Shown here: in pieces, positions 1,519 to 48,494 of the stretch
Position numbering within the stretch: position 1 is the stretch's first letter
Layout of the letters: every line of letters starts with the position of its first letter
Assembly: GCA_016788905.1 (NCBI GenBank)
Contig: JAEURZ010000002.1
Location: 95,383 to 159,382, forward strand
From: Elusimicrobiota bacterium
GTDB lineage: Bacteria > Elusimicrobiota > Elusimicrobia > FEN-1173
DNA: 64,000 nucleotides
Direction of reading: 5' to 3'
Translations under genes and position numbers: made by a program
Notes under the pieces: model-generated
Told to the model about the DNA's origin: nothing
Seen by the model: only the letters and a program-made list of their open reading frames with translations
The model's database searches: none

Positions 1519-1534
1519 TGGCACAGAGATTGCA
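1519..1534 (+). promoter_or_regulatory. sigma-54 promoter TGGCAC-agaga-TTGCA upstream of flgF operon
   Basis: Exact -24/-12 consensus TGGCAC N5 TTGCA; GGAGGA RBS at 1548-1553; ATG at 1557. Confidence 0.8.
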
Positions 1535-1556: not shown

Positions 1557-2261
1557 ATGCTAAGAGGAATTTACGCCAACGCCCAAGCAATGTCCGCCCT
1601 GATGGCCAAACAGGACGTTCAATCCAACAATTTGGCGAATGTCAATTCCACCGGGTTTAAGAAAGACCGGGTGAATTTCGAAGAATTTCAAGAGGTTTTG
1701 CGGGGCCAACAGGTGTCTTCACCCATTGCACGGACATCGTATGACCCCGGACCCGGAACCCTGATTCGCACCGACAACGCGCTTGACTTCGCGCTTCAGG
1801 GGGACGGATTTTTCTCCATGGAGACCACGGACGGGGTCCGTTACAGCCGTAACGGGTCTTTCCAATGGGACCAAAAGGGTCGTCTCACGGACAGCACCGG
1901 CCGAGTGGTTTTGGGCACGGGCGGACCTATTCAAAAAAGGGCCGAGGGTGGGGCCCTGACTGTTGACATAAGCGGAAAGATGACCATGGGCGGGGAACCC
2001 ATCGGCCAACTCCGTGTGGCGACCTTTTCAAAAGAATCGGTACTGCGAAAAACGGGTGGAGGTCTCATGGAACTCACCCGGGGCGAGGCGAAGGCCGGAG
2101 ACGGCCGCGTTTCCCAAGGATTTTTGGAAGCGTCATCGGTCAACTCGGTTCAGGAAATGGCTGAGATGATTAACACCCTCCGGCTTTTCGAGGCGAACCA
2201 GCGGTCCCTTCGTGCCCAAGACGAAGCCCTGGGACGTGCCATCCAAGAGCTGGGACGGTAA
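1557..2261 (+). CDS. flgF: flagellar basal-body rod protein FlgF
   Basis: N-term MLRGIYANAQAM..SNNLANVNSTGFK rod-protein signature; ATG 1557 preferred over GTG 1545 because of RBS. Confidence 0.85.
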   Translation: MLRGIYANAQAMSALMAKQDVQSNNLANVNSTGFKKDRVNFEEFQEVLRGQQVSSPIARTSYDPGPGTLIRTDNALDFALQGDGFFSMETTDGVRYSRNGSFQWDQKGRLTDSTGRVVLGTGGPIQKRAEGGALTVDISGKMTMGGEPIGQLRVATFSKESVLRKTGGGLMELTRGEAKAGDGRVSQGFLEASSVNSVQEMAEMINTLRLFEANQRSLRAQDEALGRAIQELGR

Positions 2262-2276
2262 TCGGGAGGAACACCC

Positions 2277-3053
2277 ATGATACGAGCCCTCTGGACCGCC
2301 GCGTCAGGAATGTCGGCCCAACAATTGAACGTGGACACGATTTCCAACAACCTGGCGAACGTCAACACCACCGGTTTTAAACGTCAACGAGTGGACTACC
2401 AGGACCTTTTTTATCAAACCCTGCGGGAACCCGGAACCGAAGAGGGATCACCCAACGGATTGGAGGTGGGAACGGGAACCTACCCCGTTTCCACTCAAAA
2501 AATATTTACCGGCGGGGCCCTCCAGGTCACGGAAACCCCCCTGGATATGGCGATTGAAGGGGACGGGTTTTTCCAAGTGGCCTTGACGGACGGGAGCATC
2601 GGGTATACTCGGTCCGGCACCTTTCGACTGGACAGTGACGGACGAATTGTCACCGCGGACGGGTATGCCCTGCAACCGGAGATAACGGTCCCTTCAGGCA
2701 CCCAAGAAATCGTTGTCAATCCCTCCGGGACAGTGTCGGTTCGAGGATCAGGCGGCGGAGCCCCCACCGAAATTGGCACCATTGAGCTGGCCTCCTTTTC
2801 CAACCCCGCCGGGTTACGAAGCCTGGGCCACAGTCTTTACGCGGAGAGTCCCGCCGCGGGATCTCCGGTCACGGGTCAAGGGGGTCTCGATGGAATGGGT
2901 CAAGTTCGACAGGGCATGCTGGAACAATCCAACGTCAGCGTAGTGGACGAAATGGTTGGCATGATCACCGCCCAACGAGCCTACGAACTGAGCGCCAAAG
3001 CCATCCAAACGGCGGATGATATGATTCGGATTTCCAACAACCTCCGCGGATGA
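2277..3053 (+). CDS. flgG: flagellar distal rod protein FlgG
   Basis: MIRALWTAASGMSAQQLNVDTISNNLANVNTTGFK and C-term SNVSVVDEMVGMITAQRAYE; RBS GGGAGGAA. Confidence 0.9.
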   Translation: MIRALWTAASGMSAQQLNVDTISNNLANVNTTGFKRQRVDYQDLFYQTLREPGTEEGSPNGLEVGTGTYPVSTQKIFTGGALQVTETPLDMAIEGDGFFQVALTDGSIGYTRSGTFRLDSDGRIVTADGYALQPEITVPSGTQEIVVNPSGTVSVRGSGGGAPTEIGTIELASFSNPAGLRSLGHSLYAESPAAGSPVTGQGGLDGMGQVRQGMLEQSNVSVVDEMVGMITAQRAYELSAKAIQTADDMIRISNNLRG

Positions 3054-3376
3054 AACGATCTTTCTGGAACGCGTTGATCGTCCCCTGTGGGTTTCTGGCG
3101 GCCTTCCCGTTGAACGCCTGGGAAACCACCGCTTACTCGAAAAAAGATGTTCCCGCCTCTCACGATCAAGAAGACCTGGCTGTCCGGAGAGGGCAACAGA
3201 TCTTGCTCGTGGCCCTCGCCGATGGGATCCGGCTTTCCGCCCCGGGGCGCGCCCTAAAAAACGGTCAAACCGGAGACATCATCCCGGTCCTCAACACCGC
3301 CACGCGAAAACCGTTGAAAGGAATTGTCCGGGACGGGTGGGTGGAAATTCAAGCTTTTGGGGAATCGAATCCATGA
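3050..3376 (+). CDS. flgA: short FlgA-like P-ring assembly protein (signal peptide + SAF-like C-terminal domain)
   Basis: Position flgG-flgA-flgH; signal peptide; G.GD.I.V.N..T.K..KG.V motif; ATGA overlap with flgH. Confidence 0.55.
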   Translation: MKRSFWNALIVPCGFLAAFPLNAWETTAYSKKDVPASHDQEDLAVRRGQQILLVALADGIRLSAPGRALKNGQTGDIIPVLNTATRKPLKGIVRDGWVEIQAFGESNP

Positions 3377-3957
3377 GATTTTTTTGGGGGGGTGTCCTCT
3401 TGCTCAGCACCATGGCGTGCACAAAAACGGTCGTTGTTCAGGCCCCCCCCCCGGCGGAACCGCCCCTCATGATGCTCTTTTCCGACCCCCGCGCATCCCG
3501 CGTGGGGGACCTCGTAACGGTACAAATTGTGGAGAATTCGAAAGGGTCGCGGCGTGTGAGTTCCATGGCCGAAAAAGAAACTGATCTTTCGGCCGATGTC
3601 AAAACATCCAACACCGGGCGGGCGTCCAAAAATAGTTTAGGATTGAAGGTGACCAACGACACGAAAGCGGAAACCGGTTTAGAGCGCCGGGGAAGTTTGG
3701 TGGCCGCGGTCACGGCGCGGGTAACGGAAGTCATGCCGGACGGAAATTTACGCATCGAAGCGGAACAGGAAATCCTCCTGGAAGGGGGGCTGCAAACCAT
3801 CCGATTGAAAGGGATTTTACGCCCGGCGGACATTGGGCCTGGGAACACGGTCCTTTCCACCCGGTTGGCGTCCGCCCGAATTGAATACAAGTCCAGGAAA
3901 GAACCGGGCCTTCATCGGCAAGGTCTTCTCTCCTGGATTTTTGGATGGGTGTTTTGA
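3373..3957 (+). CDS. flgH: flagellar L-ring lipoprotein FlgH
   Basis: MRFFWGGVLLLSTMAC signal/lipobox; L-ring family body; start 3373 (ORF track 3337). Confidence 0.85.
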   Translation: MRFFWGGVLLLSTMACTKTVVVQAPPPAEPPLMMLFSDPRASRVGDLVTVQIVENSKGSRRVSSMAEKETDLSADVKTSNTGRASKNSLGLKVTNDTKAETGLERRGSLVAAVTARVTEVMPDGNLRIEAEQEILLEGGLQTIRLKGILRPADIGPGNTVLSTRLASARIEYKSRKEPGLHRQGLLSWIFGWVF

Positions 3958-4985
3958 ACCGCCTCTCAGAGAAAACACGTCGGTGGGGAACCCTCGCCGT
4001 TTTTCTGTTGCATTCCGTGAGCGGAGTGGGAACCGCCTGGGCCGATATGAGGGTCAAGGATTTGGCTCGGGTGGGGGGCTGGCGGGAAATGGAGTTGGTG
4101 GGCTACGGTCTGGTGACCGGCCTTCGCGGATCCGGTGACAAAGCGGGGTCGAATCCCTCCGCCCAATCCATGGCCAATTTATTAAACCGCTTGGGTTTAT
4201 CCCTTTCCCCCCAGGAAATTGCCTCAAACAACGTGGCGGCGGTCATCGTCACCGCCCGAGCTTCCGCTTTTTCTCGACCTGGATCCAGTTTAGACGCCCG
4301 GGTTTCTTCCGTTGGAAACGCCACCAGCCTGGAGAATGGGACCCTCCTTCTGACCCCCCTCCGAGGAGCCAACGGCGAAATCTACGCCACCGCGCAGGGA
4401 GCCCTGGCCTCCGATCCTGAATCGGGGGGAAGGAAAGGGAAATCCAACGCCGTCCAAAACACCACCGTGGTGGTCCCCGGAGGTGTCCTAATGGAAAAAG
4501 TATTGCCTGTCCCCAACGGAATGAACGAAGGAAAATTGAGCGTGGCACTGCACACCCCCGATTATGTCACCGCCGAACGAACCGCCCAAGCCCTTCGGGA
4601 AGCCTTTAAAATCTCCTGCCGGGCCCTGGACGCCGCGCTGATCGAGATTGACATTCCCCCTGATTTCAAAAACGACCCTGTGGGGTTTGCCGCCCGAGCC
4701 GAAATGGTTCGCGTGGGGGCCGACGAACGGCCCCGGGTGGTGGTGAACGAACAGACCGGGACCGTGGTGTCCGGTCGGGAAGTGAAACTTTCCGCCGTCA
4801 CCATCTCCCACGCTGGTTTGAAAATCGAGGTGGGCCGTGCTTCCTCCGCGGGAGGAACAGAAGGGGACGTGCCCACCCTGGTGGGGCTCTTGAACCGCGT
4901 GGGGGCTCGACCCAAAGACATTGTCACTATTTTCAAAATGATCAAACGGCTCGGCGCCCTGAAAGCCGATTTGGTGCTCATGTGA
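3945..4985 (+). CDS. flgI: flagellar P-ring protein FlgI
   Basis: Signal peptide, LVTGLRGSGDK, NTTVVVPGGV motifs typical of FlgI. Confidence 0.9.
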   Translation: MGVLNRLSEKTRRWGTLAVFLLHSVSGVGTAWADMRVKDLARVGGWREMELVGYGLVTGLRGSGDKAGSNPSAQSMANLLNRLGLSLSPQEIASNNVAAVIVTARASAFSRPGSSLDARVSSVGNATSLENGTLLLTPLRGANGEIYATAQGALASDPESGGRKGKSNAVQNTTVVVPGGVLMEKVLPVPNGMNEGKLSVALHTPDYVTAERTAQALREAFKISCRALDAALIEIDIPPDFKNDPVGFAARAEMVRVGADERPRVVVNEQTGTVVSGREVKLSAVTISHAGLKIEVGRASSAGGTEGDVPTLVGLLNRVGARPKDIVTIFKMIKRLGALKADLVLM

Positions 4986-5317
4986 ACACGTCCATTCTCT
5001 CGACTTTTCAGAATTCCCCCCCTCCTGGGGCGGGGGTTAAAAAAGACTCCCTCCGGGATGCCTGCCGGGATTTCGAGGCCCTTTTTTTGCATACTCTTCT
5101 CCGGGAAGGACGCGGGAACTCCTCCGTTGCCATCTCGGGTGACAAAAGTCACGCGTTGGCCATGGTCCAAGACTTCCAGGACGAGGCCATCGGTCGTGAA
5201 ATGTCCCGGGCTGGAGGCGTAGGATTGGGCCAAATGCTTTACCGGGAACTGGCCAAAACCGCTCAAGATTCCTCCCCAAGTGCCGATAACTTAAGCGAGA
5301 GGAGGGTCTCCCCATGA
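4982..5317 (+). CDS. flgJ: rod-binding protein (FlgJ N-terminal domain only, no muramidase)
   Basis: LRDACRDFEALFLHTLLRE..GLGQMLYREL matches Rod-binding domain; GTG start overlapping flgI stop. Confidence 0.7.
   Translation: MNTSILSTFQNSPPPGAGVKKDSLRDACRDFEALFLHTLLREGRGNSSVAISGDKSHALAMVQDFQDEAIGREMSRAGGVGLGQMLYRELAKTAQDSSPSADNLSERRVSP
5263..5288 (+). promoter_or_regulatory. sigma-28 (FliA) type promoter TCAA-N15-GCCGATAA upstream of flgM
   Basis: Exact GCCGATAA -10 element 26 nt before flgM ATG; flgM is a classic sigma-28 target; fliA encoded in window. Confidence 0.5.
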
Positions 5318-5637
5318 TAAATCCCATAGGAATCAATGGGTCGAATGAACCTGTTCGACCTGGAGGGCCAGAGGAATCATCGGCGGCCAAAAAAACGGCC
5401 CCCGTGGAAGGAATCCAGAAAATCAAGGAAGTGGAACCCAATAAAGGGGACAAGGTCGAGATTTCCGCCTTAGCTCGGGACGTCCAAAACATCCGGGCGA
5501 ACTTAGGCGCCAAGGAAGCCGACCGCGTCGCCCACGTGGAAGCCCTGCGCAGCAAGATCGCGGAAGGGACCTACGCGGTGGACACCACGTCATTGGCTCA
5601 GAAAATGTTCTTCAACGGGTTCAAGGGGAAGGGATGA
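5314..5637 (+). CDS. flgM: anti-sigma-28 factor FlgM
   Basis: C-terminal VEISALARDV..KIAEGTYAVDTTSLAQKM FlgM domain; size; position before flgN. Confidence 0.75.
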   Translation: MINPIGINGSNEPVRPGGPEESSAAKKTAPVEGIQKIKEVEPNKGDKVEISALARDVQNIRANLGAKEADRVAHVEALRSKIAEGTYAVDTTSLAQKMFFNGFKGKG

Positions 5638-6137
5638 CGCCAAGCGCTTCCCCTGTTTCTTTGCCTCGGTTGGTGGCCTCCCTGGACACGATCGTCACTC
5701 TGTGTGACGATCTTTGTTCCGTTTTGGAACGAGAGCGGGAGGCCCTCACCGAAGGCAAAGACGACGCGCTGGCGCTGGCCCTCGGTGAAAAGCGAGATCG
5801 CCTGCGCCGAATCGCAACAGCGGAATCGGAACATCGAAAAGTTTCTGCGGAAATCTCCAACGAACTGGGGTTGGGTCGGGTGGATTCTTCGCTCGCGGAC
5901 CTGGCCTGTCGAATGGAGGGCACAGCCCGGGACCAATTGGTTCAAGCGAAAGACAACCTTTTTAAAGTCATGAAGGAAATTGGGGCTCTCAATCAGGGCA
6001 ACGCGCGCCTCATTCGGCGGGCCCAGCATTACAACCGACACCTCTTTGGAATTTTAACCGGGCCCGGAGCGGACACCTACGGTCCGGATGGGGCCCGACG
6101 AACAGGCGCCCCACCCGTCATTCAAAAAAGGGCGTGA
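5634..6137 (+). CDS. flgN: FlgN-family flagellar export chaperone
   Basis: Helical 167 aa protein between flgM and flgK (flgMN-flgKL synteny); ATGA overlap with flgM. Confidence 0.55.
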   Translation: MTPSASPVSLPRLVASLDTIVTLCDDLCSVLEREREALTEGKDDALALALGEKRDRLRRIATAESEHRKVSAEISNELGLGRVDSSLADLACRMEGTARDQLVQAKDNLFKVMKEIGALNQGNARLIRRAQHYNRHLFGILTGPGADTYGPDGARRTGAPPVIQKRA

Positions 6138-6140
6138 ACT

Positions 6141-7769
6141 GTGTCTCTCCTCGCTAGTTTTGACCTCAGCACACGGGCCCTCCGGGCTTTTCAAGTCGCG
6201 ATTCAAACCATTTCTCACAACATTTCCAACGTGAACACCCCCGGCTATTCCCGCCAACGGGTGATCTATTCCACGGAAATTTCAGATTTTGACGGACGAT
6301 TTTATACCGGGCGAGGGGTTCAGGTTGAAAATGTGGAACGACTGCGGAGTGAATTTTTGGAGGGACAATTTCGTCGGGAATTTGGGGGAAAGGGAGAAGC
6401 CGATGCCCTGGTGGAATCCTATCAGTTAGCCGAAGATCTCCTTTCCGAACCCGGGGACAGGGGCCTGTATTCCAAGATGACGCGCTTTCGTGACGCCTGG
6501 GCCAGCCTGGCGAACAATCCCGGAGACCCAGGTCTCCGAGCAGTCCTACGGGTGGAAGGCCAGACCCTCATGGAATCCTTTAACAGCACCCGCCAAGGCT
6601 TCAACAATCTCCGCATCCAAACGGACGGGGAAATTCGGAGTCTGGTGCCCAAAATCAACATGGCCGCTGAGGAACTTTTTGCGCTCAACACCAAGATCGA
6701 AACCGCCACCCTTTTGGGCCAAAGACCCAACGACGCCCTCGACCGACGGGACAAATTGCTCACGGATCTCTCCGAATTGGTCCCGCTTCAAATTATTCAC
6801 CGCAACAATGGATCCGTCTCGGTTTACCTGGGGGGAGCCCCTCTGGTGGAGGCCACCGGCCCCGGTTCGCTGACCGTGGTTCAGAAACCCGGGGACCTCC
6901 TGGGTTTGGGGGAAATTCGGTGGGCGACTTTTGACGAACCCCTCGTGGTGGGCAACGGGCGACTGAAAGGTCTTCTGGAGGCGCGCGATTCGATTTACCC
7001 CAGAATGATGAACGAGTTGGACTCATTGGCTACCGCTTTGGTCACCCAGGTGAACGCCATCCACCGGACAGGGGTGGGTTTAGACGGGTCGGTTGCCATC
7101 CAGGGGTCCACCCGATTCAATGGAACACTGACCTCCAACGCCACGGTCTCCCTGAATGGAGTAGACGTTACCTTTACCGCTGGGGACGACATCGCCACCG
7201 TGGCGGGAAAATTCAATCTTTCGGAAGGGGCGACCGGGGTCCGGGCCACGGTTGTGGGGCAACGGTTAACCCTGTCCCCCGCCGCCCTCAACCCCCAAAC
7301 GGTCCAGGTAACGGGAGATCCCAACGGCCTGTTAAAAACGCTGGGAATCGTAAACGATTTTTTTAAAGGAAACCCCGGCGCGTGGGCCCTCTCCGACGCT
7401 GTGGCTGAAAGCACCGACGCCATCGCCACGTCCGTTTCCGGCGCTCCGGGGGACAACACGATCGCTCGGTCCTTGGCGGACTTATGGAATCAACGTTTGA
7501 TGGGAGGGGGGACGCGCTCCTTTGAAGAGTTCCACCAAGGGTTTCTGGCCGATGTCGGAAGTCAATCCGAAGCCGCCAGCCGTACCAGCGAAAGCCAAGG
7601 CTTTATCCTCCAACAGGTGGAGAACCTCCGGGACTCGACATCCGGCGTTTCCACGGAAGAAGAACTCGCCAATTTGATTCGTTTTCAACGATCCTATGAA
7701 ATGGCAGCACGGGCGGTTCGTACCGCGGACGAAATGTTCCTGACTCTCATCAATATGATTCAGCGGTAA
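6141..7769 (+). CDS. flgK: hook-associated protein 1 FlgK
   Basis: N-term ISHNISNVNTPGY and C-term RFQRSYEMAARAVRTADEMFLTLINM; 542 aa. Confidence 0.9.
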   Translation: MSLLASFDLSTRALRAFQVAIQTISHNISNVNTPGYSRQRVIYSTEISDFDGRFYTGRGVQVENVERLRSEFLEGQFRREFGGKGEADALVESYQLAEDLLSEPGDRGLYSKMTRFRDAWASLANNPGDPGLRAVLRVEGQTLMESFNSTRQGFNNLRIQTDGEIRSLVPKINMAAEELFALNTKIETATLLGQRPNDALDRRDKLLTDLSELVPLQIIHRNNGSVSVYLGGAPLVEATGPGSLTVVQKPGDLLGLGEIRWATFDEPLVVGNGRLKGLLEARDSIYPRMMNELDSLATALVTQVNAIHRTGVGLDGSVAIQGSTRFNGTLTSNATVSLNGVDVTFTAGDDIATVAGKFNLSEGATGVRATVVGQRLTLSPAALNPQTVQVTGDPNGLLKTLGIVNDFFKGNPGAWALSDAVAESTDAIATSVSGAPGDNTIARSLADLWNQRLMGGGTRSFEEFHQGFLADVGSQSEAASRTSESQGFILQQVENLRDSTSGVSTEEELANLIRFQRSYEMAARAVRTADEMFLTLINMIQR

Positions 7770-7787
7770 CAGCGAAGGAGGAACCCC

Positions 7788-8663
7788 ATGCGAATCACCG
7801 ATAAAATCATCCAGCGCGGCATGGTTGACGACATCCATCGGCAATTGGACAGCATGAATCGTCTGCAACGACAGATTTCATCAGGCCAAAAAGTCCACAA
7901 CCTATCCGACGATCCCGCTCGGGCCGCGCGTTCCGTAGGGCTGAACGCCGCGCACACCGCTCTTGTTCAACACCGAAAAACCGCGGAAGATGGGGTGACC
8001 TGGATGAGCGCGACACTCGGGTCCTTGGCCACCGCCCGCGAATCCATACAAACGGCACGAGTGATGGCAATTCAGGGAGCCAATGACACGTTGTCCTTGG
8101 AATCTCGGCAGGTGCTGGCGTTGAGTGTGCAAGGGATTGCCTCTCAGCTGTTGGAAACGGCCAACACCAAATGGAACGGAGCGTCCCTCTTCGCTGGCAA
8201 CAAGACCACGACGCCGGCGTTCACGAGCGCCGCGGTCTACCAGGGCGACACGGGGACAATGGTTCGGGACATTTCCCCGGGGGAAACTTCGGTGGTGAAC
8301 CTCACCGGAAAACAGGTTTTTGTGGATGGCGAAAACGCCTTCCAGGTTCTGACCGACCTCCAAACCGCCCTCACGAACAATGACTCGAACGCCATCAACG
8401 CTTTGCTCCCTCGGTTGGACAACGCCCTAAATCAAATGCTTAAACTGGAAGCCACGTTGGGCGCGGAAGTCCAACGTGTGGAAACAACGACCCGACGACT
8501 GGACGACCTAGAGGTCAATCTTATGAAACGTATTTCCAACAACGACGACACCGATATGCCGCAGGCCCTGGTGGATCTCCAAAACGCCAACACCCTTTAT
8601 GAGGCGGCGCTGAAAGCCTCGGCGTCTCTTTTCAAATCAAGTCTTTTGGATTACCTCCGATGA
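7788..8663 (+). CDS. flgL: hook-associated protein 3 FlgL
   Basis: MRITDKI start, flagellin-like N/C helices; AGGAGG RBS. Confidence 0.85.
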   Translation: MRITDKIIQRGMVDDIHRQLDSMNRLQRQISSGQKVHNLSDDPARAARSVGLNAAHTALVQHRKTAEDGVTWMSATLGSLATARESIQTARVMAIQGANDTLSLESRQVLALSVQGIASQLLETANTKWNGASLFAGNKTTTPAFTSAAVYQGDTGTMVRDISPGETSVVNLTGKQVFVDGENAFQVLTDLQTALTNNDSNAINALLPRLDNALNQMLKLEATLGAEVQRVETTTRRLDDLEVNLMKRISNNDDTDMPQALVDLQNANTLYEAALKASASLFKSSLLDYLR

Positions 8664-9115
8664 CACCCTCTCCCCATACGCCAACCGCGACGGAGAGAAC
8701 GGTTCAGACCACCCGGTTCGGAACGCTCACGATCGATGAAGAACTTGCGCTTTCTTTCCCAGAGGGTTTGGTGGGGTTTCCCGGACCTCATTTGTTCGCG
8801 CTGGTACCCCACAGCAAAGAAAGTCCCTTTCTCTGGCTGCAAGACCTTGAGGACGGGTCCTTGGCCTTTCCCGTAACGGCGTTGGATTTACCCGACACCG
8901 CCGCCCCCACACTTCTCACAACAGAGGAACGCACCCAACTCGGATTGGAACCAGGGGAAAACCCTCGCCTCTTGGGCGTGGTCTCCGTTTCCAAAGGGGA
9001 AATCCATTTGAACCGTCTCGGTCCGATCGCGGTCAACATCCAGAAACGGATCGGGCGGCAACTGGTCTTGGACCTTCCCCTCCCGCCCTCCGAATTCCTC
9101 TCCCCGGGTGGCTGA
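8660..9115 (+). CDS. fliW: flagellar assembly factor FliW
   Basis: FGTLTIDEELALSFPEGLVGFPG..FALVP FliW signature; ATGA overlap with flgL. Confidence 0.85.
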   Translation: MTPSPHTPTATERTVQTTRFGTLTIDEELALSFPEGLVGFPGPHLFALVPHSKESPFLWLQDLEDGSLAFPVTALDLPDTAAPTLLTTEERTQLGLEPGENPRLLGVVSVSKGEIHLNRLGPIAVNIQKRIGRQLVLDLPLPPSEFLSPGG

Positions 9116-9120
9116 TCCCC

Positions 9121-9366
9121 ATGCTTTTACTCACGCGACGATTGGAGGAAAGTGTCCTTATTGGCGGCACCATAGTCGTCAAAGTTCTTTCCATCGCACG
9201 CGGCCAGGTGACCTTGGGGATATCCGCCCCCACCACCGTGCCTGTGCATCGGCAGGAAGTTCACGACGCGATTAAAGCCCTCAACCGTCATGCCGCCAAC
9301 GCGTTCCCTTCCGATTTGGATAAAGCGACTCACGCGATTCCCACCACCGTTCCCCCCAAAAAATAG
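9121..9366 (+). CDS. csrA: carbon storage regulator CsrA (FliW partner)
   Basis: MLLLTRRLEESVLIGGTIVVKVLSI..VTLGISAP CsrA fold signature. Confidence 0.9.
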   Translation: MLLLTRRLEESVLIGGTIVVKVLSIARGQVTLGISAPTTVPVHRQEVHDAIKALNRHAANAFPSDLDKATHAIPTTVPPKK

Positions 9367-9434
9367 GGATCCCTTTCTTAGACACATTGCGACCAACCCC
9401 CTAAAATGGTTTATTCTCAACGGGGAGGAACACG

Positions 9435-9479
9435 ATGGATGGGATTCCCATGAACCTTCTCCCCACAACCCATGACTGA
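9435..9479 (+). other. 14-codon upstream ORF (MDGIPMNLLPTTHD) with strong RBS, stop overlapping the kinase start (ATGACTGA)
   Basis: GGGGAGGAA 4 nt before ATG 9435; GGA motifs resembling CsrA sites; coding status unproven. Confidence 0.25.
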
Positions 9480-10650
9480 TTCGAAGACCAACGGTTTGTC
9501 CCCTGATCCTTTTAAATCCGACCTTCCCCTCCGGTCGTTGACCGCCGACGTGGCCCATGAAATTTCGAACCAGTTGGGGTGTCTCGTTCTGCTCCCCGAC
9601 CTTATCCTAGGCCATCTCCCTCCCGAGAGTCCCCTCGCCAACGATCTCCGGCAGATTCGCCGAGCCGCTCACCGCATTGACGAGCTATCGACCCATTTGT
9701 CCCTCCTTTCCTTGGACCGGGACGAACGGGCCACTCTTAATTTGAATTTACCGGTTCACCAAGCCACCGAAACCGAGGGATGGACCGCTCTTCTGAGGGA
9801 TCACCCGGAGACAACGGTTCAGACAACTTTGGAGGAAATTCTTCCTCCCATTTCGGGGTCAGCGGATTGGATACTCGTCATTGCGGGAAACCTTCTCCGA
9901 AACGCTCTTGATGCCCACCCGCAAGGGGCCATCGCCGTTAGCACGTTCCCCAAAACGTTGAATGAAGATTTCGATGGCTGGGAACGTATCCCCCTGGGTT
10001 CCTACGCCGTTCTCTCGGTCACCGACCGGGGTCCCGTTTTGACTCCCGTTCACCGATTAAAGCTTTTTGAACCCTATTACGCCTCCAACACCCTGGGACG
10101 CCGGTCAATGTCCGGGTTGGGGATGGCCGTCGTCCGTCAACTGGCCCGACGGCAAGGGGCCTATCTGGATGTTCGTTCAGAAGGACAGGGGACCACCATC
10201 GACCTCTACTTCCCGGCCAGCGTCATGGCCGGAAAACCGCAATCCACCCCTCCCTTGCGAGACAAAGTCCTTGTGGTGGATGACCGGGAAGAACAACGCA
10301 ACGTGATCTCACGCATTTTAAAGGGGCAGGGATACGCTGTCGCTTCCTTGGCTGGAGGAACCGAGGCGATAACCCATCTGGAAGAACACGGCGGGGACCT
10401 GATCATTCTCGACATCTCCTTGCGTCGGGACCGGGAAGGGTTGGATCTCCACGCCCAGATCCGGTCCCGATGGCCCGCCAAAAAGATTCTTCTGATCAGC
10501 GGTCACCCGCGCGAAGCGTATGCGGATGTTTTGGGGCGCGTCGGGGATTGTCCTTTCTTAAAGAAACCTTTCCGAGCGGAAGAACTGTTGGTTGCGGCAG
10601 GCAATCTTCTCCCACCCCCCAACCCCGTTCGGATTTCCCTCCCCACATGA
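9472..10650 (+). CDS. cytoplasmic histidine kinase with C-terminal receiver domain (no sensor/TM domain)
   Basis: H-box ADVAHEISNQLG, HATPase_c G-boxes, receiver KVLVVDD..D.IILD; no hydrophobic segments. Confidence 0.8.
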   Translation: MTDSKTNGLSPDPFKSDLPLRSLTADVAHEISNQLGCLVLLPDLILGHLPPESPLANDLRQIRRAAHRIDELSTHLSLLSLDRDERATLNLNLPVHQATETEGWTALLRDHPETTVQTTLEEILPPISGSADWILVIAGNLLRNALDAHPQGAIAVSTFPKTLNEDFDGWERIPLGSYAVLSVTDRGPVLTPVHRLKLFEPYYASNTLGRRSMSGLGMAVVRQLARRQGAYLDVRSEGQGTTIDLYFPASVMAGKPQSTPPLRDKVLVVDDREEQRNVISRILKGQGYAVASLAGGTEAITHLEEHGGDLIILDISLRRDREGLDLHAQIRSRWPAKKILLISGHPREAYADVLGRVGDCPFLKKPFRAEELLVAAGNLLPPPNPVRISLPT

Positions 10651-11840
10651 CCGACGGACCCAATGCAACCCCTCGCGGCCGGGTTGAACCCCGACCCGGA
10701 TTGCGCGCCCTTCAACAACTTGTTCCCCGGCTGAAAATCGCGCGAGTCCTCTCGATGCCGGAAGACAGTTTTGGTCAATTGGTTCTTTCGGTGGAGAGGG
10801 ATCCTCTTTTTCGTAAATTTTTTCACACCGACAATCCCCAACACAAACTCTTTTCCTACCAACGCTACCCACGGAGTGGTCTCACGTCGGGTTTCCTCGA
10901 ACTTCGCGATGAGGTCTCGCCGTCTTCAGGAGAAGCGGATATTGAATCCTTGCTGGAAGAGAAGCGGGATCTCATCGATCTTTGCCACCGGATTGGACGT
11001 TCCAATTTCGAGACCTATTTCCTTTACGCGGACCGAACCGGGTCCCCTGAAACCATCGCCCGCGCCTGTGGACTGACCCCGGAGGAGTCCAGACGCCTGT
11101 TGGACCTCACCACCCAAATTGGAATTCGTGCTGAATTTTACACCGCCCCGTCCTCCACCCCCGAGAATTTCAACACGTTCTCTCGCATCGCCCACATCGA
11201 CCGAGACGGAGAAGGTTTTTCCATTCGCTACACGTCTCTTCGGTACGGACGAGGGCGGTATGCGATTCAATACGAAAAGTTGGAATCCCTCAAAAAAGAT
11301 CCTTCCCTTACCCCGGCAGAAAAACGCGCCCTAAGGAAACTCATTCAATCCATGGAACTGGTGAACGCCCGCCGCTCCACCATGAACCAAATTTTAGAAG
11401 CCGTGATGGACCATCAGCGGTCTTTTTTAGTGTCGGGAAAGGAAGAAGACTTAAAGGATTTTACCCAAGACCGCCTGGCGGCAAAACTGGGGGTTCACCC
11501 CAGCACCGTCTGCCGGGCCGTGGCGTCTAAAGCGGTCCTGGCTCCCTGGAACCAGGAACTCCCGCTTCGGGATTTTCTGGGACGCGGGTCATTGCATGGA
11601 ACACTGGCGGAACTTGTTCGACTCATTGAGCGGGAGGAGGCTCTTTTCCGCTCGGGGGAGATCCCACTTCCCTTTCGGGACTCGGAATTGGCCGGCCAAC
11701 TGAAATCAGGGAGAAAAGTTTCGATCGCTGTTCGTACGGTCTCCAAATACCGCTCACTGGCCGGCATCCCGAACGTTTACACGCGCGCTCAAAATTACCG
11801 ACAACCTCCGCCAACCCCTCAGGCGGTTTCAAACCACTAA
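10647..11840 (+). CDS. rpoN: RNA polymerase sigma-54 factor, short form (397 aa) with degenerate region I
   Basis: RpoN box AVRTVSKYR, HTH LAAKLGVHPSTVCRAVASKAV, region-I-like LRALQQLV..RDPLF; ATGA overlap with kinase stop. Confidence 0.8.
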   Translation: MTDGPNATPRGRVEPRPGLRALQQLVPRLKIARVLSMPEDSFGQLVLSVERDPLFRKFFHTDNPQHKLFSYQRYPRSGLTSGFLELRDEVSPSSGEADIESLLEEKRDLIDLCHRIGRSNFETYFLYADRTGSPETIARACGLTPEESRRLLDLTTQIGIRAEFYTAPSSTPENFNTFSRIAHIDRDGEGFSIRYTSLRYGRGRYAIQYEKLESLKKDPSLTPAEKRALRKLIQSMELVNARRSTMNQILEAVMDHQRSFLVSGKEEDLKDFTQDRLAAKLGVHPSTVCRAVASKAVLAPWNQELPLRDFLGRGSLHGTLAELVRLIEREEALFRSGEIPLPFRDSELAGQLKSGRKVSIAVRTVSKYRSLAGIPNVYTRAQNYRQPPPTPQAVSNH

Positions 11841-14935: not shown

Positions 14936-15307
14936 CTAGTCTAGGGGTGAAGGGGGACGGGTCGCCCGAATTAGGCGTCGTTCCTCCCGTCGAATCCGTT
15001 CAAGTGAGAATCCTTCCCGCAATTGAAACACCGCTTCGCGCTCGTTCCCGCGGAGCACGGTTCCTTCCACCGTTTCAGGGGAATCCTCAAAGTAAACGAC
15101 GGCCCGTACCCACGTCCCTCGAACAAACGGAGTGTGCCCTTCCACACTCAAACGCATCCCCCGTTCACTGATATCCAACACCTCAAAACGAACACCAGAC
15201 CACTCACACAGGGGGCGCCCACGGAAGGGAAATTCCACGCGAAAAAGTGCCCGATCGGCCCGAGAAGCGGACCCATCAGACGAAGGGGGATTGGAAGAGG
15301 AAGACAT
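14936..15307 (-). CDS. stand-alone PilZ-domain c-di-GMP binding protein
   Basis: RADRALFR (RxxxR) and DISERG (DxSxxG) motifs with canonical spacing. Confidence 0.75.
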   Translation of the reverse strand: MSSSSNPPSSDGSASRADRALFRVEFPFRGRPLCEWSGVRFEVLDISERGMRLSVEGHTPFVRGTWVRAVVYFEDSPETVEGTVLRGNEREAVFQLREGFSLERIRREERRLIRATRPPSPLD

Positions 15308-15313: not shown

Positions 15314-16192
15314 TTAAACCCCTTTCTCGTGACCCGGGACGGCAGGGACCGTCCCTTTCGCCATAGACGGGACGCCCGCCGCGGGAGGGGGTACCCCCAA
15401 ACTTTTCTTGACCGCCGCTACCGCCGCCGTGTGAATTTGACACGCCCGGGATTCCGTCACTTTCAACGCCATTCCGATTTCCCGGAAGGTCAGTTCTTCT
15501 TGGTAATAGAGCGCGAGCACCAATCGCTCTTTTTCGGGCAAGGCGTCTAAAACCGCTTTAATCTGTTGAAGCACTTCCTGTCGTTCCATCGTATCCAAAG
15601 CCAAAGGCCCGCCATCGTTCATGGACGACGCCAAAGCCAGATCCTGGGGCGTGTCGTTGGACATGTCCACCGCGTCCAAAGAAACGGAGGAGGCATGGGA
15701 CACTTCCCAACACAGATCTCGCATGGATTCGGGAGACAGGTTCAACACCTGGCGAATTTCTTCTTGCGAGGGTTCGCGCCCCAGTTCTTCACGCAAAACG
15801 GTTTGAACACGCCGATAATTTTCAACCCGCCGCCGTGCGCCACGACCCAACGGGTCAAGACCCCGCAAATGATCGAGGACACTTCCTTGAATCCAGCGAT
15901 AGGCAAAAGTGTCAAATTTAACGTTCCGGGCCGGGTCGAATCGATCAAAAGCGCGGATCAACCCGACCGCACCCGCGCTTTCCAAATCGTCCCGATCGGC
16001 CTGGGGAACCAGGATGGCTTTCATTCGACCCACAATGTGGCGAACCAAAGGCGCGTGCATCGCTAAAATCTCTTCCCGGGCCCCGGGATCGTTATTTTGG
16101 AAATAGCGATCCCAAAGGACCTGGGGGTCCGGTGGGGTCGACGTTGGAGGGCCCAGGGGAAGGGGGCCCGATGGCTTTTTCAAGGGAATCAT
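15314..16192 (-). CDS. fliA: flagellar sigma factor FliA/sigma-28
   Basis: Sigma-70 family regions 2, 3 and 4; size 292 aa; follows flhA as in fla/che operons. Confidence 0.85.
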   Translation of the reverse strand: MIPLKKPSGPLPLGPPTSTPPDPQVLWDRYFQNNDPGAREEILAMHAPLVRHIVGRMKAILVPQADRDDLESAGAVGLIRAFDRFDPARNVKFDTFAYRWIQGSVLDHLRGLDPLGRGARRRVENYRRVQTVLREELGREPSQEEIRQVLNLSPESMRDLCWEVSHASSVSLDAVDMSNDTPQDLALASSMNDGGPLALDTMERQEVLQQIKAVLDALPEKERLVLALYYQEELTFREIGMALKVTESRACQIHTAAVAAVKKSLGVPPPAAGVPSMAKGTVPAVPGHEKGV

Positions 16193-25603: not shown

Positions 25604-25658
25604 TTCCCGGTAAAACTCTTCATGTTGTGTTTATGCAAGATCCGTGCGAACCGTGCGA

Positions 25659-34116: not shown

Positions 34117-35142
34117 TTACGCACCCTCCTTGGAATCATCGGCCCGTGTAATAGAAGCGTGATCCAGAATAAAATCAAACACCTTGTCCTCAAGCAAAAT
34201 CCCACGAACTTCTTCTTTCTGAGAATCCAGGCGCGCGATCGTTTGCTCTCGCTGATGAACAGGCAATGGGTGAGCGGCTTTCCGCACCGCCACCACCGCT
34301 TCCTCGTTCGATACAGAAATTCCCTCCGCGTCGCCAATCGCGGCCAATATATAGGCCAATCGAACCCCCCTTTCGGCCTCCAATCGAACCGTAGGTTCAT
34401 ATTCAACGTAACGGTTTTTCCAGGCTTCCAGAGTTCCCCCTTCCGCCCGAAACTGTCCCTCAAGACGACGAAAAAGTTCCCGGGAACGTTCCCGGGCCAG
34501 GCTGGGAGGCACATCAAAAGGGTGGGCCTCAAGCAGTGCCTCCACCGCCTGACTCTCCAAGTCGCGGCGAACCAGACGTTCCGATTCGGACTCCAATATT
34601 TTTCGCACCGCTTCCCGAAATTCTGAGGGCGCCCCAATGGTTTCACCCCCGATTTCCTTTAAGGCCGCCTCCAGTGCCGCTTCTGTCACTGGGAAGGAAC
34701 GTCTTTTGAGGGAAAGACCTTTGTATCCGGTGATATCCACGTCGGGAGGGCTTTCAACTGAAAATTGAATTCGAATACTCCCCTGGCCCACATCCGCGGC
34801 CTCCACGTTTGGAGCGCTGAGCGTAATCAAGTGACAATCCTCGAGCGCGCGCCCCACGGATTCTTTCACGAGAGCCGTTAAGGCTTGTTCTCGGGCTTCG
34901 GTAGCGAACCGAAGACGGACGCGGGGGATGGGAACACTTCCGCGCCGAAATCCTGGCCATTTCACGTCCCGTTGCAATCGCTCAAGAACCTGGGCCTCTT
35001 TGACCAACAAATCTTCGAGGGGCTGTTCAATCCAGAAAAAGGACCGCCCGTTTTTGACACCCATGGGTCGAACGAAAAAACTCCGGCCGTCCCCCATCGT
35101 GCCTGGATGGTGTTTCGGGTTCGGAGTCGAAGCGGGCGTCAT
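34117..35142 (-). CDS. trigger-factor-like protein lacking the PPIase domain (N-terminal ribosome-binding domain with GFRRGSVP + TF C-terminal domain)
   Basis: GFRxGxxP TF signature motif at expected spacing; N- and C-domain blocks colinear with E. coli Tig but ~90 aa FKBP domain absent; ATGA overlap with flgC stop and 1-nt gap to fliE. Confidence 0.7.
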   Translation of the reverse strand: MTPASTPNPKHHPGTMGDGRSFFVRPMGVKNGRSFFWIEQPLEDLLVKEAQVLERLQRDVKWPGFRRGSVPIPRVRLRFATEAREQALTALVKESVGRALEDCHLITLSAPNVEAADVGQGSIRIQFSVESPPDVDITGYKGLSLKRRSFPVTEAALEAALKEIGGETIGAPSEFREAVRKILESESERLVRRDLESQAVEALLEAHPFDVPPSLARERSRELFRRLEGQFRAEGGTLEAWKNRYVEYEPTVRLEAERGVRLAYILAAIGDAEGISVSNEEAVVAVRKAAHPLPVHQREQTIARLDSQKEEVRGILLEDKVFDFILDHASITRADDSKEGA

Positions 35143-35961: not shown

Positions 35962-35977
35962 ATGCAAGAAATGTGCC
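35962..35977 (-). promoter_or_regulatory. sigma-54 promoter (cGGCAC-atttc-TTGCA on minus strand) for the flgB...fliA operon
   Basis: GG and GC elements at correct 10-nt spacing; full -12 TTGCA; 20-35 nt upstream of flgB start. Confidence 0.75.
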
Positions 35978-35979
35978 GA

Positions 35980-36325: not shown

Positions 36326-36341
36326 TGCAATTCGCGTGCCA
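36326..36341 (-). promoter_or_regulatory. sigma-54 promoter TGGCAC-gcgaa-TTGCA (minus strand) driving the 101-aa gene
   Basis: Exact consensus match; RBS and ATG 40-55 nt downstream. Confidence 0.75.
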
Positions 36342-36408: not shown

Positions 36409-36987
36409 TTGACCAATCCCCACAGCTGGCGATCTGAATTTAATTTGGGCGTGGACATGATGGATCGGCATCACCGTGAGATGGTGAGTCTTTGTGACGC
36501 GGTGGCAGACCGAGCAAACACCCAGGGAGGAGTTCCCCAGGCGGTGAACCTTTTAGCCGAACTGGTCGGGTACGTGGGGATGCACTGCGAAGCGGAAGAG
36601 GAATTGATGCGGCGATTTTGTTACCCAGGGAGAATGGATCACCAGGATCGACACCATGAGATGGGAGTCCTTTTAAAATCCTGGGAAGATCGGGCGCGGC
36701 GACAGAAACAGGCGATCAATACCGCCTTTCTGCTTCGTCTAAGCCAATGGGTGGAAAGTCACATTCTGGGGTCGGATCGGGGCTTTTCTCGTTTTCTTTT
36801 GGATCACGTGGGGGCAGACCCTACGGCTCTGCCGCGAAGAAGGAAGGCGATTGACGTGAACGAATCCCGGTGTTCAGTGGGGAAGTCGACCGTAGCGTTT
36901 CAGTCGACTTCGTGTGACCGTTTCGCTCAAACCCAAACGAGTCGCGGCCGTTTCAATCGATTCGTTGCAGGTGTCATAGACTTTTAA
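36409..36987 (+). CDS. bacteriohemerythrin-like protein with ~40-aa C-terminal tail
   Basis: H...H, HF..EE, H...H, D..H..D cation-binding residues arranged as in hemerythrin (HHE); TTG start with strong RBS; 3' end overlaps activator gene by 114 nt convergently. Confidence 0.65.
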   Translation: MTNPHSWRSEFNLGVDMMDRHHREMVSLCDAVADRANTQGGVPQAVNLLAELVGYVGMHCEAEEELMRRFCYPGRMDHQDRHHEMGVLLKSWEDRARRQKQAINTAFLLRLSQWVESHILGSDRGFSRFLLDHVGADPTALPRRRKAIDVNESRCSVGKSTVAFQSTSCDRFAQTQTSRGRFNRFVAGVIDF

Positions 36988-38289
36988 AATATGGCGTCGC
37001 TCGACAGCGGCGAGCGTCTCCGAGGCGTCTGGATCCGGGGACGCGTGTTGTCCTTGAAAAACGGCGGGCAAGTCCGCTACGCGAACGGCGTCCCCCTCGG
37101 CGAAAACGACCGCGTGCTCAATGACGTTGTGAAGTTCTCGGATATTCCCGGGCCACGGGTAAGCGTTGAGGCACGCCAGGGCCTCCACGGAAAGAACGGT
37201 CGGTCCGCGGCCGCGAACAGCGGACTGGAGAAAAAAACTCGCCAAGAGAGGAATGTCTTCTTTTCTTTCCCGAAGCGCGGGGAGGCGGAGGGAAAACACG
37301 CCCAACCGGTAGAAAAGATCCTCACGAAATTGGGATTGACGAACCATAGATTCCAAGTCACGGTGAGTCGCGGCCACAAAACGAACATCCACCGCCTGTT
37401 CGGTGTTGCTCCCCAAGCGTCGAAAACGTTTCGTCTCCACCACACGCAACAGTTTGGCTTGGAGAGGCAGGGGCATGTCGCCGATTTCATCCAGCAAGAG
37501 GGTCCCGCCGTTTGCCATTTCCAAAAGGCCCCGTTTCATTCCGGTCGCATCCGTGAACGCCCCTTTCTCGTGCCCAAAAAGTTCGCTCTCCAACATGGTT
37601 TCGGGGAGGGCGCTGCAGTTCAGGGGAATAAACGGTCCTTCTCGACGGGTGCTGCGATTGTGGAGCGCGTGGGACACCACCTCTTTTCCTGAACCCGTTT
37701 CCCCCCGAATCAGAACGTTGCACTGGGTTGGGGCAATGCGGTTAAGAAAATCCGCGACCCGTTGAATAGACGGACTTTTACCGATCAAATCAGGAACAGA
37801 AAAGAGGTTGGACATGGGCCGGGGCCCCACGCCCCGCTGAGAAGACTTACGTTTTTGCCGGATTCTGTCGATAACTTCCATCAGAGCACGCATTTGAACA
37901 GGTTTGGGGAGAAAATCAAACGCGTCCAATTGAAGTGTTCCCAACGCCGCGCGCATGCTGCCGGCCCCCGAAATCGTGACCACATCGGTCGAGGGATGGA
38001 CTTTTTTGATTTGGCGCAACATTTCAGTTCCATCCATCCCGGGCATGAACAGGTCCAAGAGGACGATGTCGGCGGCGGCATCTTTCAGGGTTTGGAGTCC
38101 TTCCTCCGCCGAAAAAGCCAGGTTGACCGTGTGGCCCTTCTCCGTTAAAGCGCGGTCCAAGGCATAAGCCACCGATCGATCGTCATCAACGATGAGGATC
38201 GAAAATGTCATTTCCAAGGGCTGTGAGGGCGAGGCCATGGGGGATCGCGTCCTTTCAATGCGCGTTGTGTCTGTTGGTGTAAAATTCAT
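36874..38289 (-). CDS. sigma-54-dependent response regulator (NtrC/FlrC/FleR family: REC + AAA+ + HTH)
   Basis: Receiver ILIVDDD..D; Walker A GETGSGKE; GAFTGA-loop variant GAFTDA; C-terminal Fis-like HTH; true start probably M27 (38211). Confidence 0.9.
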   Translation of the reverse strand: MNFTPTDTTRIERTRSPMASPSQPLEMTFSILIVDDDRSVAYALDRALTEKGHTVNLAFSAEEGLQTLKDAAADIVLLDLFMPGMDGTEMLRQIKKVHPSTDVVTISGAGSMRAALGTLQLDAFDFLPKPVQMRALMEVIDRIRQKRKSSQRGVGPRPMSNLFSVPDLIGKSPSIQRVADFLNRIAPTQCNVLIRGETGSGKEVVSHALHNRSTRREGPFIPLNCSALPETMLESELFGHEKGAFTDATGMKRGLLEMANGGTLLLDEIGDMPLPLQAKLLRVVETKRFRRLGSNTEQAVDVRFVAATHRDLESMVRQSQFREDLFYRLGVFSLRLPALRERKEDIPLLASFFLQSAVRGRGPTVLSVEALACLNAYPWPGNIRELHNVIEHAVVFAEGDAVRVADLPAVFQGQHASPDPDASETLAAVERRHILKVYDTCNESIETAATRLGLSETVTRSRLKRYGRLPH

Positions 38290-46527: not shown

Positions 46528-47616
46528 TTACTGGGGGGTGACCGACACAGGGGAGCTGGTGCCCACGGCTTCCCAGACGTCCCGCGCGCTCACCCGAATA
46601 TGAAACGGACCGACGGGAAGAAACGCGGGGGATACAGTGAAAATGTAGGGCGCCCCGCGGAGCGAACGTCCTCTCCGTGTCCATTGCCGCCCATCCGGCG
46701 AAATTTCAAGCCACGCCGATTCAATATTCGTTCCTTTTACCGCAGCCCGTACCACGAGATTTTTTCCGTTCCAAAACCCTTCCGAAGAAGCGGGAAGATT
46801 TACCTGAGGCCGAACCGACCGAGCGGGTACAAGCTTAAGCGCCACCGCCGGGGTGTAAGACACGGCGGGGAATTGGAAAGCCGCGGTGCTGGTCCGGGGC
46901 GGCTGGCCCTCGGATTTATCGCGCCACCAGGCAATCCGTTGGTCTTCCACCCGAGCCCCCGCCAAAACCGGGGAATGTTCTTCCCCTTTCAACGCTTCGC
47001 TCGGGGAATAGATGACCACGATATTGGGAACATCGGTGGAGAGAGAGGACAAAGGAATTTCGGTCCAAAACCAGCGCGCCTCACCCACGCCTTCTAAAGG
47101 CTGGCGGGGATGGCCGGCCAAGGGAATCTCCTCGGTGCGCACCAGGGGGTAACGCCGATGAGGAAGACAGGGAAAAGTCTGGGTCACCGCGGCAAAAATT
47201 TCACCGGGAATTACACGCTGGTCCCAGTCGGGACGACCCGGTTTTCGCTCTGTTTTCATGCCCCCCAACTTGGCTCCCACAAACGCCCGGTTCCATGAAC
47301 CCATGGGGACAGGGGGAAGAAGAACCACCCAACTGCGGCTGAATCCTACCGAAAATCCAAATGTTTCCCCCCCATCGGCAAGGAACGGGTAATCGTTCGG
47401 ATTTGGCTGAGCGCCCAAATAAAGGGGAAACTCCGGAAAGGAAAGAGCCTCCTCAGGTAGAGGGGGTGGCTTGGATGGAATAGAAACAGGACGAGGTTTC
47501 TCCCCAGAGGGGGAGACCATCGGCCGCGCCGGAGGGACGGGCAGGCCCGGTTTATTCGTGGGAAGCGTAACGCATGCCCCCATCAAGAGAGGAAGGACAA
47601 GAAGGAAACGGTTCAT
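46528..47616 (-). CDS. lipoprotein of unknown function
   Basis: MNRFLLVLPLLMGAC lipobox; 362 aa. Confidence 0.5.
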   Translation of the reverse strand: MNRFLLVLPLLMGACVTLPTNKPGLPVPPARPMVSPSGEKPRPVSIPSKPPPLPEEALSFPEFPLYLGAQPNPNDYPFLADGGETFGFSVGFSRSWVVLLPPVPMGSWNRAFVGAKLGGMKTERKPGRPDWDQRVIPGEIFAAVTQTFPCLPHRRYPLVRTEEIPLAGHPRQPLEGVGEARWFWTEIPLSSLSTDVPNIVVIYSPSEALKGEEHSPVLAGARVEDQRIAWWRDKSEGQPPRTSTAAFQFPAVSYTPAVALKLVPARSVRPQVNLPASSEGFWNGKNLVVRAAVKGTNIESAWLEISPDGRQWTRRGRSLRGAPYIFTVSPAFLPVGPFHIRVSARDVWEAVGTSSPVSVTPQ

Positions 47617-48494
47617 TTATGTGGACGGAGAGTTTTAAGTTGTTGAACGATGACATCCAAATCATCGATCGAGTAGAAATCGAGTCTCAACCAACCCTTA
47701 GTTTTTCCCCGGGAGTTGATGACCACGCGCCGCCCCAGAAGGCGTTGCAAGTCTTCCTCGATATGGCGAACATCGGGGTTCTTTTTGGGTGGGACCTTCA
47801 AAGGTTCTTCCGGGGATCCGTGGGTCCAGGCCGCCACAAGGGATTCCACTTCCCTCACCGTCAACTTTTCTTGCACCACCCGCTTGCCCAGCTCTTCCTG
47901 TTGGGCTCGATTGGAAATCCCCAACAACGCCCGGGCGTGACCTTCGGAAAGGAGGTCCTCGATCAGCGCGTTCCGAAGCATTTGGGAAAGATCCAATAAG
48001 CGAAGTTTGTTCGCCACCGCTGACCGGCTTTTCCCCAACCGACGTGCCACCTCTTCTTGGGTCAACCCCGCTTCGTCCATCAGACGGCGAACAGATTCGG
48101 CTTCTTCAACCGGATTGAGATCTTCCCGCTGAAGGTTTTCCACCAACGAAAGTTCGTGTCGCTCTCGTTCCGTAACCACTCGAATCACGCAGGGGACATC
48201 CACCAATCCGGCCATACGCGACGCACGCAAACGCCTTTCCCCAGCCACCAATTCGAATTCTCCCGGAACCGCCGAGGGAGCCACCAGAAGAGGCTGGGCC
48301 AGTCCATGAATTTGAATGGAGTCGGCCAATTCCTGCAGAGATTCCACCGTAAAACGAACGCGAGGCTGATATCGATTCGGCCGAATTTTATCGATTGAAA
48401 TTTTGGCGACCAATCCTTCCGTCGCCGGACCCGTGTTGCCAGGGGCCGGTTTTAACAGAGCTTCCAGCCCGCGTCCCAACGCTTTGTGCACCAT
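47613..48494 (-). CDS. parB: chromosome partitioning protein ParB/Spo0J
   Basis: ParB box GERRLRAS, HTH LTQEEVARRLGKSRSAV. Confidence 0.9.
   Translation of the reverse strand: MVHKALGRGLEALLKPAPGNTGPATEGLVAKISIDKIRPNRYQPRVRFTVESLQELADSIQIHGLAQPLLVAPSAVPGEFELVAGERRLRASRMAGLVDVPCVIRVVTERERHELSLVENLQREDLNPVEEAESVRRLMDEAGLTQEEVARRLGKSRSAVANKLRLLDLSQMLRNALIEDLLSEGHARALLGISNRAQQEELGKRVVQEKLTVREVESLVAAWTHGSPEEPLKVPPKKNPDVRHIEEDLQRLLGRRVVINSRGKTKGWLRLDFYSIDDLDVIVQQLKTLRPHK

Follow-up and report, generated by a model that had tools for sequence, protein, structure and literature searches.

A strongly diverged sigma-54-like protein encoded at a flagellar locus, probably the Elusimicrobiota form of sigma-54

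The DNA considered here (the window) is a stretch of 64,000 nucleotides (nt) from an Elusimicrobiota bacterium (assembly GCA_016788905.1, contig JAEURZ010000002.1, positions 95,383 to 159,382; G+C content 56.7%), and the subject is a gene for a sigma-54-like protein of 397 amino acids (aa) standing at the 3′ end of a flagellar operon. The gene is a stop-free open reading frame (ORF), located with the other features of interest in Table 1. An alternative in-frame ATG exists upstream, at 10470; the start at 10647 is supported by the N-termini (MTDGP...) of 17 homologues, which align there, and is also that of the NCBI call MBL8022909.1 (397 aa, ‘hypothetical protein JNK54_01310 [Elusimicrobia bacterium]’), an exact match. 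An earlier interpretation made from the letters of the DNA alone (the sequence-only reading) had proposed a 397-aa sigma-54 gene at this place, and the ORF, its start and a homology to sigma-54 with an atypical N-terminus are all borne out. The same reading located the gene behind csrA and a sensorless kinase at the end of the flgF operon, an order confirmed by Pfam, and outside the lptB–rpoN–hpf–ptsN context, the gene order here being flagellar instead. In short, the observation is confirmed and its interpretation partly supported, and the protein is stranger than was then described.

Table 1. Features of the window, with coordinates in its own numbering, strand and basis of assignment
Feature	Position	Strand	Basis or remark
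Sigma-54-like gene	10647..11840	+	Translation; Sigma54_DBD; TIGR02395 partial; Foldseek; exact database match MBL8022909.1
Region-I-like segment, residues 17–60	10695..10826	+	Three helices predicted by AlphaFold (AF2), 17–35, 39–50 and 53–59; family motif; hhalign
Short core-binding-domain-like helical segment, residues 97–165	10935..11141	+	hhalign from residue 130; match of residues 106–162
Extra-long helix (residues 223–256) and helix–turn–helix (274–292, HPSTVCRAVASK)	11313..11522	+	AF2 secondary structure; 5UI5 alignment; hhalign
RpoN box AVRTVSKYR	11727..11753	+	Translation; alignments to solved sigma-54 chains
Soluble hybrid histidine kinase–receiver, 392 aa	9472..10650	+	Pfam; NCBIfam PRK13557/CckA-like; sequence
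14-codon upstream ORF with strong Shine–Dalgarno sequence (GGGGAGGA)	9435..9479	+	Read from sequence; stop overlaps kinase start codon
Sigma-70-like candidate promoter TAGACA-17-TAAAAT	9379..9407	+	10/12 consensus matches only; in the 105-nt csrA–kinase gap
flgF–flgG–flgA–flgH–flgI–rod-binding (flgJ-like)–flgM–flgN–flgK–flgL–fliW–csrA	1558..9366	+	Pfam; ORF coordinates; tightly packed
Perfect −24/−12 promoter TGGCAC-N5-TTGCA (TGGCACAGAGATTGC at 1519–1533)	1519..1534	+	24 nt before the flgF ATG at 1558
Second perfect −24/−12 promoter	36327..36341	−	Ahead of a 101-aa ORF, then flgB, flgC
−24/−12-like site CGGCAC-N5-TTGCA	35964..35978	−	Directly upstream of flgB
−24/−12-like site TCGCAC-N5-TTGCA	25635..25649	−	Gap upstream of flgE; CG replaces the usual GG
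Receiver–AAA+ enhancer-binding activator (FlgR/NtrC-like)	36874..38289	−	Only one in the window; Pfam; NCBIfam; sequence
fliA (sigma-28)	15314..16192	−	Downstream of flhA; Pfam; flgM in the flgF operon

The affiliation to sigma-54 is carried by the C-terminal part of the protein. Residues 234–380 match the Pfam domain Sigma54_DBD (PF04552) with 66 bits for a cut-off of 22.8, so that the DNA-binding domain with helix–turn–helix and RpoN box, by which a sigma-54 protein is recognized, is present. The NCBIfam rpoN equivalog TIGR02395 scores 71.4 bits for a cut-off of 277 and aligns at model positions 281–433 only, short of a full-length equivalog. Profile comparisons reach further toward the N-terminus: the profile of the protein family matches Aquifex sigma-54 (5UI5) with E = 1.3e-27 over profile positions 168–378, and hhalign comparison of the family with 15 canonical sigma-54 proteins gives a probability of 99.9% over residues 130–382. 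This span corresponds to the end of the core-binding domain, the extra-long helix, the helix–turn–helix and the RpoN box, and shows the C-terminal two thirds to be orthodox. The segment formed by the extra-long helix and the helix–turn–helix is the counterpart of the part of canonical sigma-54 that reads the −12 element. The RpoN box is identical to the canonical ARRTVAKYR at 7/9 positions, with Val for the first Arg, and its residues R363, T364, K367, Y368 and R369 are invariant in the alignment of homologues. An AlphaFold model of the protein (predicted local distance difference test, pLDDT, 70.6) was compared by Foldseek with the PDB; the best 27 matches are all sigma-54 and several span 430–460 columns, with TM-scores that are low (0.3–0.43), as expected for a flexible multi-domain protein.

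The N-terminal third, made up of a region-I-like motif and a core-binding region of reduced length, is diverged past detection by Pfam and NCBIfam: neither Sigma54_AID (PF00309) nor Sigma54_CBD (PF04963) is matched by Pfam in the protein, even at E ≤ 10. Region I had been described in the sequence-only reading as recognizable though degenerate, and region II as nearly absent. The string LRALQQLVPRLKIARVLSMPEDSFGQLV, quoted for region I, is present at residues 20–47, within the family-wide motif RxKLAxxLxLPExxFxxxIxxIExDPLF, and only a short, acidic linker of low confidence (approximately residues 79–100) takes the place of region II. For the core-binding region, the alignments suggest a length of ∼65 aa versus ∼150 aa in canonical proteins, i.e. 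about half. A protein with so short a core-binding region, and with its DNA-binding domain alone detected by Pfam and NCBIfam, might be a non-sigma derivative of the sigma-54 C-terminus that acts as a repressor or decoy at −24/−12 sites, or in another role, without recruiting RNA polymerase. This explanation is improbable, given that the hhalign match starts inside the core-binding domain, that the region-I-like motif stands in register at the N-terminus, that Foldseek aligns the protein with sigma-54 over its full length and that the gene accompanies activators whose only known target is sigma-54. Conservation argues against it as well. The mean frequency of the most common residue in the family is 0.48 in the region-I-like segment and 0.46 in the core-binding-like segment, equal to that of the DNA-binding part (0.48 in the extra-long helix and 0.43 in the RpoN domain), and the N-terminus is therefore functional and not decaying.

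The protein belongs to a large family. A word-indexed search retrieved 18 close relatives, which match PF04552 alone, with canonical sigma-54 proteins entering the list no earlier than E = 3.5e-12; an exhaustive profile search collected at least 247 clusters at 50% identity with E ≤ 1e-30, and among the matches listed most are of ∼350–400 aa and aligned across nearly the whole profile. Sigma54_DBD is matched in 60/60 family members tested, and for these 60 members Sigma54_AID and Sigma54_CBD are both absent from the 25 most-matched families listed at E ≤ 1. All members that carry an organism name come from Elusimicrobia or Elusimicrobiota, and a scan of genome contigs with subclade-specific patterns gave five loci. 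A few members are labelled ‘specialized sigma54-like protein’ in IMG, and the NCBI label is ‘hypothetical’. No paper describing an Elusimicrobia sigma-54 was found in the literature. Elusimicrobium minutum has been reported to lack sigma-54 as well as its activators (PMC3162934); canonical sigma-54 is therefore not a fixture of the phylum. Proteins described in bioRxiv 10.1101/2022.07.08.499144 are possibly members of the same sigma-54-like family adjoining activators.

The loci of the relatives bear on the role of the gene. In the closest ones (designated L001 and L005/L006), the flgF...csrA–kinase–sigma arrangement is the same, including the pairing of the kinase gene with the sigma-54-like gene; in L002, with a protein 41% identical, the gene is alone and lies beside fliA–flhA. 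Distant members are found at non-flagellar loci, one between feoB and the gene of a PAS activator, a second overlapping a receiver activator gene and a third followed by genes for a kinase and a receiver activator. A sample of 80 metagenome loci from another subclade has an activator gene within 10 kb in 41/80 cases, and two of these loci (L038 and L021) show the order sigma-54-like gene–(receiver)–kinase–NtrC-like activator, by NiFe hydrogenase or other genes. In addition, −24/−12 sites occur near several non-flagellar family genes. The association is thus not restricted to flagella in the manner of RpoN2, with distant members at feoB, hydrogenase and NtrBC-like cassettes, and the pattern of loci fits a general sigma-54 and not a flagellum-specific one. 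Since distant members stand in non-flagellar loci, usually by a kinase and an activator and near −24/−12 promoters, the protein is read as the lineage's own divergent sigma-54 and not as a paralog dedicated to the flagellum. The explanation retained, which is considered probable, is that the protein is sigma-54 in the form proper to Elusimicrobiota, lineage-specific, strongly diverged and most likely the only sigma-54 of the organism. Mobile elements adjoin two of the flagellar relatives: in L001 (metagenome-assembled genome (MAG) GCA_016714745.1, 11221–12234), an IS200/IS605-type Y1 transposase gene directly follows the sigma-54-like gene, and in L002 a phage-type integrase gene is found just upstream of it.

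Several points weigh against this explanation. The N-terminus alone aligns with canonical N-termini in register with region I, yet weakly (hhalign, E = 0.0047, probability 7.5%), and the match of residues 106–162 with the canonical core-binding domain is also weak (E = 6e-4, probability 28%). The AlphaFold model of the N-terminus on its own, with a pLDDT of 52, is too poor for a fold search. To our knowledge, a core-binding region of half the usual size is unprecedented in a working sigma-54, and it would fit a specialized or a non-sigma derivative. Lastly, the only matches to a hidden Markov model of canonical sigma-54 (15 sequences) in the window and 98 loci were family members; the DNA scanned amounts to ∼1.1 Mb, in which fewer than one canonical rpoN would be expected even with a copy in each genome. 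Likewise, no rpoN is present in ∼7.6 kb beyond one end of the window.

The alternative put forward in the sequence-only reading, a flagellum-dedicated paralog of the type of Rhodobacter sphaeroides RpoN2, working with an activator of its own and leaving other regulons to a canonical rpoN at another place in the genome, was weighed together with the properties of that activator. Synteny of the gene with the flagellar cluster in L001, L005/L006 and L002 speaks for such a paralog, and relaxed or redirected selection can give strong divergence of an N-terminus. The activator of the window, as had been noticed, does carry GAFTDA in place of GAFTGA (loop HEKGAFTDATG, with GAFTDA at 37546–37563 on the minus strand), and the variant is kept in 18/18 of its orthologues, the most distant of them at 57% identity. 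Among the 102 remaining best database matches to the activator, 92 have GAFTGA and 7 GAFTDA, and activators adjoining other family members have GAFTDA or GSFTDA in 5/6. However, the 80-locus sample of the other subclade yields 27 GSFTGA, 12 GAFTGA and only 2 GAFTDA loops (2/41 activators), and GAFTDA also occurs beside canonical sigma-54, as in DVU2106 of Desulfovibrio vulgaris, where such variants were judged compatible with activation (PMC4641369). It has been reported in Dickeya VfmH too. A co-adaptation of GAFTDA across the whole family was for these reasons rejected as general evidence, and the loop variant, found beside canonical sigma-54 and not family-wide, does not show the co-adapted sigma/activator pair that had been suggested. 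Moreover, the paralogs of R. sphaeroides keep the canonical architecture. They are described as rpoN gene copies (PMC12316311). Since the family extends to non-flagellar loci by unrelated activators and kinases, forms at least 247 clusters and has no canonical rpoN beside it in the DNA scanned (weak evidence, the sample being small), the terms ‘paralog’ and ‘flagellum-dedicated’ are not retained, and the existence of a dedicated paralog is held to be rather unlikely.

A lineage-specific sigma-54 is further consistent with the promoters. The perfect pattern TGGCAC-N5-TTGC occurs twice in the window against 0.11 expected, a number reached in 0/100 shuffles, and a relaxed −24/−12 pattern has four matches, 4/4 of them upstream of flagellar operons. 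It is the rod, ring and hook operons of the supercluster that have −24/−12 promoters ahead of them. The sigma-54 promoter that had been predicted at 1519 is a perfect match, and its position ahead of flgF is conserved in four related genomes, with TGGCAT in L001 and TCGCAC in L005, L014 and L015. Cognate −24/−12 promoters and AAA+ activators, which are expected to accompany a sigma-54, are thus present in the same genome. Replacement of the near-invariant GG of the −24 element by CG (TCGCAC-N5-TTGCA) is seen at flgF in L005 (position 800), L014 (980) and L015 (996), and at flgE in the window.

How the gene itself is transcribed is a related matter. The flgF promoter had been called the only visible promoter, a claim weakened by the sigma-70-like candidate in the gap between csrA and the kinase gene, which is partly conserved in L001 (CAGACA...CAAAAT) and was not found in L005. 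No convincing terminator was found between csrA and the kinase gene, so that transcription from the sigma-54 promoter could read through into it. In L001 and L005, hairpin-plus-T matches towards the 3′ end of the kinase gene were rejected as terminators, because they fall within coding sequence (conserved PFLKKP motif). The positive feedback loop proposed earlier does not stand as a conserved design: in L002, the gene is by itself and has an upstream region of its own (359 nt) without a −24/−12 site, so that autoregulation is not conserved across the family, and in the window the sigma-70-like candidate stands ahead of the kinase gene. Were the protein the only sigma-54 of the organism, its first expression would have to be independent of sigma-54 in any case. 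The upstream ORF that overlaps the kinase start has a counterpart of nine codons at the same place in the L001 alignment. The upstream ORF of the window lies directly downstream of csrA and has a GGA-rich Shine–Dalgarno sequence, and these GGA motifs could be CsrA sites controlling translation of the kinase and the sigma-54-like protein.

On the best reading of these elements, the protein would here drive a flagellar cascade of the Campylobacter type. It would bind the flagellar −24/−12 promoters as part of RNA polymerase, and the polymerase would stay closed until the phosphorylated FlgR-like activator remodels the region-I-like N-terminus. The adjoining kinase would feed this activator, in the role that FlgS has towards FlgR in Campylobacter and Helicobacter, after which FliA and FlgM would run the late flagellar genes. 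In the subclade of the window, transcription of the sigma-54-dependent flgF operon could extend into the gene, which follows that operon, and so give some positive feedback, with basal expression supplied most likely by another promoter, in front of the kinase gene.

A bolder proposal, held tentatively, is that free-living Elusimicrobiota run all their enhancer-dependent transcription with a ‘minimal’ sigma-54, in which a single core-binding subdomain remains out of two and region I is rewritten. Such a protein may also accept the CG that stands in the −24 element at flgF and flgE promoters, where GG is otherwise near-invariant. If the proposal is true, docking on RNA polymerase and reception of the activator loop differ from those of every sigma-54 studied, and surveys based on domains would mistakenly record no sigma-54 in the phylum. 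Recent surveys define sigma-54 by three Pfam domains (PMC12316311). A family in which the promoter-reading half is kept and the activator-receiving and core-binding half is unrecognizable would be missed by three-domain surveys and by NCBI annotation alike. Should it be the only sigma-54 of these bacteria, it would amount to a natural experiment on how far the core-binding domain and region I can be reduced while enhancer-dependent transcription still works.

The surrounding genes complete the picture. The kinase has an H-box (VAHEISN, His29), a HATPase_c domain and a receiver, with no sensor or membrane domain, and its stop codon overlaps the start of the sigma-54-like gene by 4 nt (ATGA). 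Converging on the latter, the minus strand encodes a large PAS hybrid kinase, a PilZ protein, fliA, flhA, flhB, fliR, fliP and fliN, continues with flgE, fliK, fliI, fliG, fliF, flgC and flgB, and then reaches the receiver–AAA+ activator gene, from which motAB diverge; the rest of the window contains a P-type ATPase gene, parAB, tonB/exbB and hyp genes. Positions 1500–40100 thus hold a complete flagellar supercluster in an Elusimicrobia MAG (rod, rings, hook, export apparatus, C-ring, motAB, fliA, flgM and fliW–csrA), and the same supercluster is found in several related MAGs. In a 2024 paper, the phylum is said to lack flagella, and the window is a record of a complete flagellar system wired to sigma-54 in that phylum. 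Among the individual genes, a short trigger-factor-like gene (34117–35142, minus strand, 341 aa) located between flgC and fliE matches Trigger_N and Trigger_C, with no match to a peptidyl-prolyl isomerase (PPIase) domain. The PilZ-domain protein (14936–15307, minus strand), encoded between the large PAS hybrid kinase and fliA, is possibly a flagellar brake of the YcgR type responding to cyclic di-GMP. A parA–parB pair (47613–49316, minus strand) lies ∼36 kb from the sigma-54-like gene, and the flagellar cluster may be near the chromosome origin.

With canonical sigma-54 (E. coli, Klebsiella and Aquifex aeolicus), the protein shares the extra-long helix, the helix–turn–helix, the RpoN box, the −24/−12 promoters and the AAA+ activators. 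Shortness is not peculiar to it either, as Aquifex sigma-54 has a full length of ∼398 aa; its chain in 5UI5 is of 342 aa. Unlike canonical sigma-54, it has a putative region I and a putative core-binding domain that escape Pfam and NCBIfam, the latter with the shortened length given above, and a Val for the first Arg of the RpoN box, and its gene is outside the lptB–rpoN–hpf–ptsN context. With R. sphaeroides RpoN2, which works with FleQ/FleT, it has in common the tie to the flagellum, the sigma-54-dependent flagellar promoters and a dedicated activator (RpoN2 role: PMC12316311), but RpoN2 is one of four rpoN copies, whereas the present family is also non-flagellar and its N-terminus far more diverged. 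A further parallel is with Campylobacter and Helicobacter. In these bacteria, FlgS, FlgR and sigma-54 form a cascade with FliA and FlgM, and it is this cascade that serves as the basis of comparison. The features shared with it are a soluble sensorless kinase, a receiver–AAA+ activator, sigma-54 promoters ahead of rod and hook genes, and fliA with flgM. Differences are that the present kinase, a hybrid, carries a receiver domain itself, that its translation is coupled to that of the sigma gene and that fliW–csrA lie immediately upstream; its phosphotransfer partners are putative.

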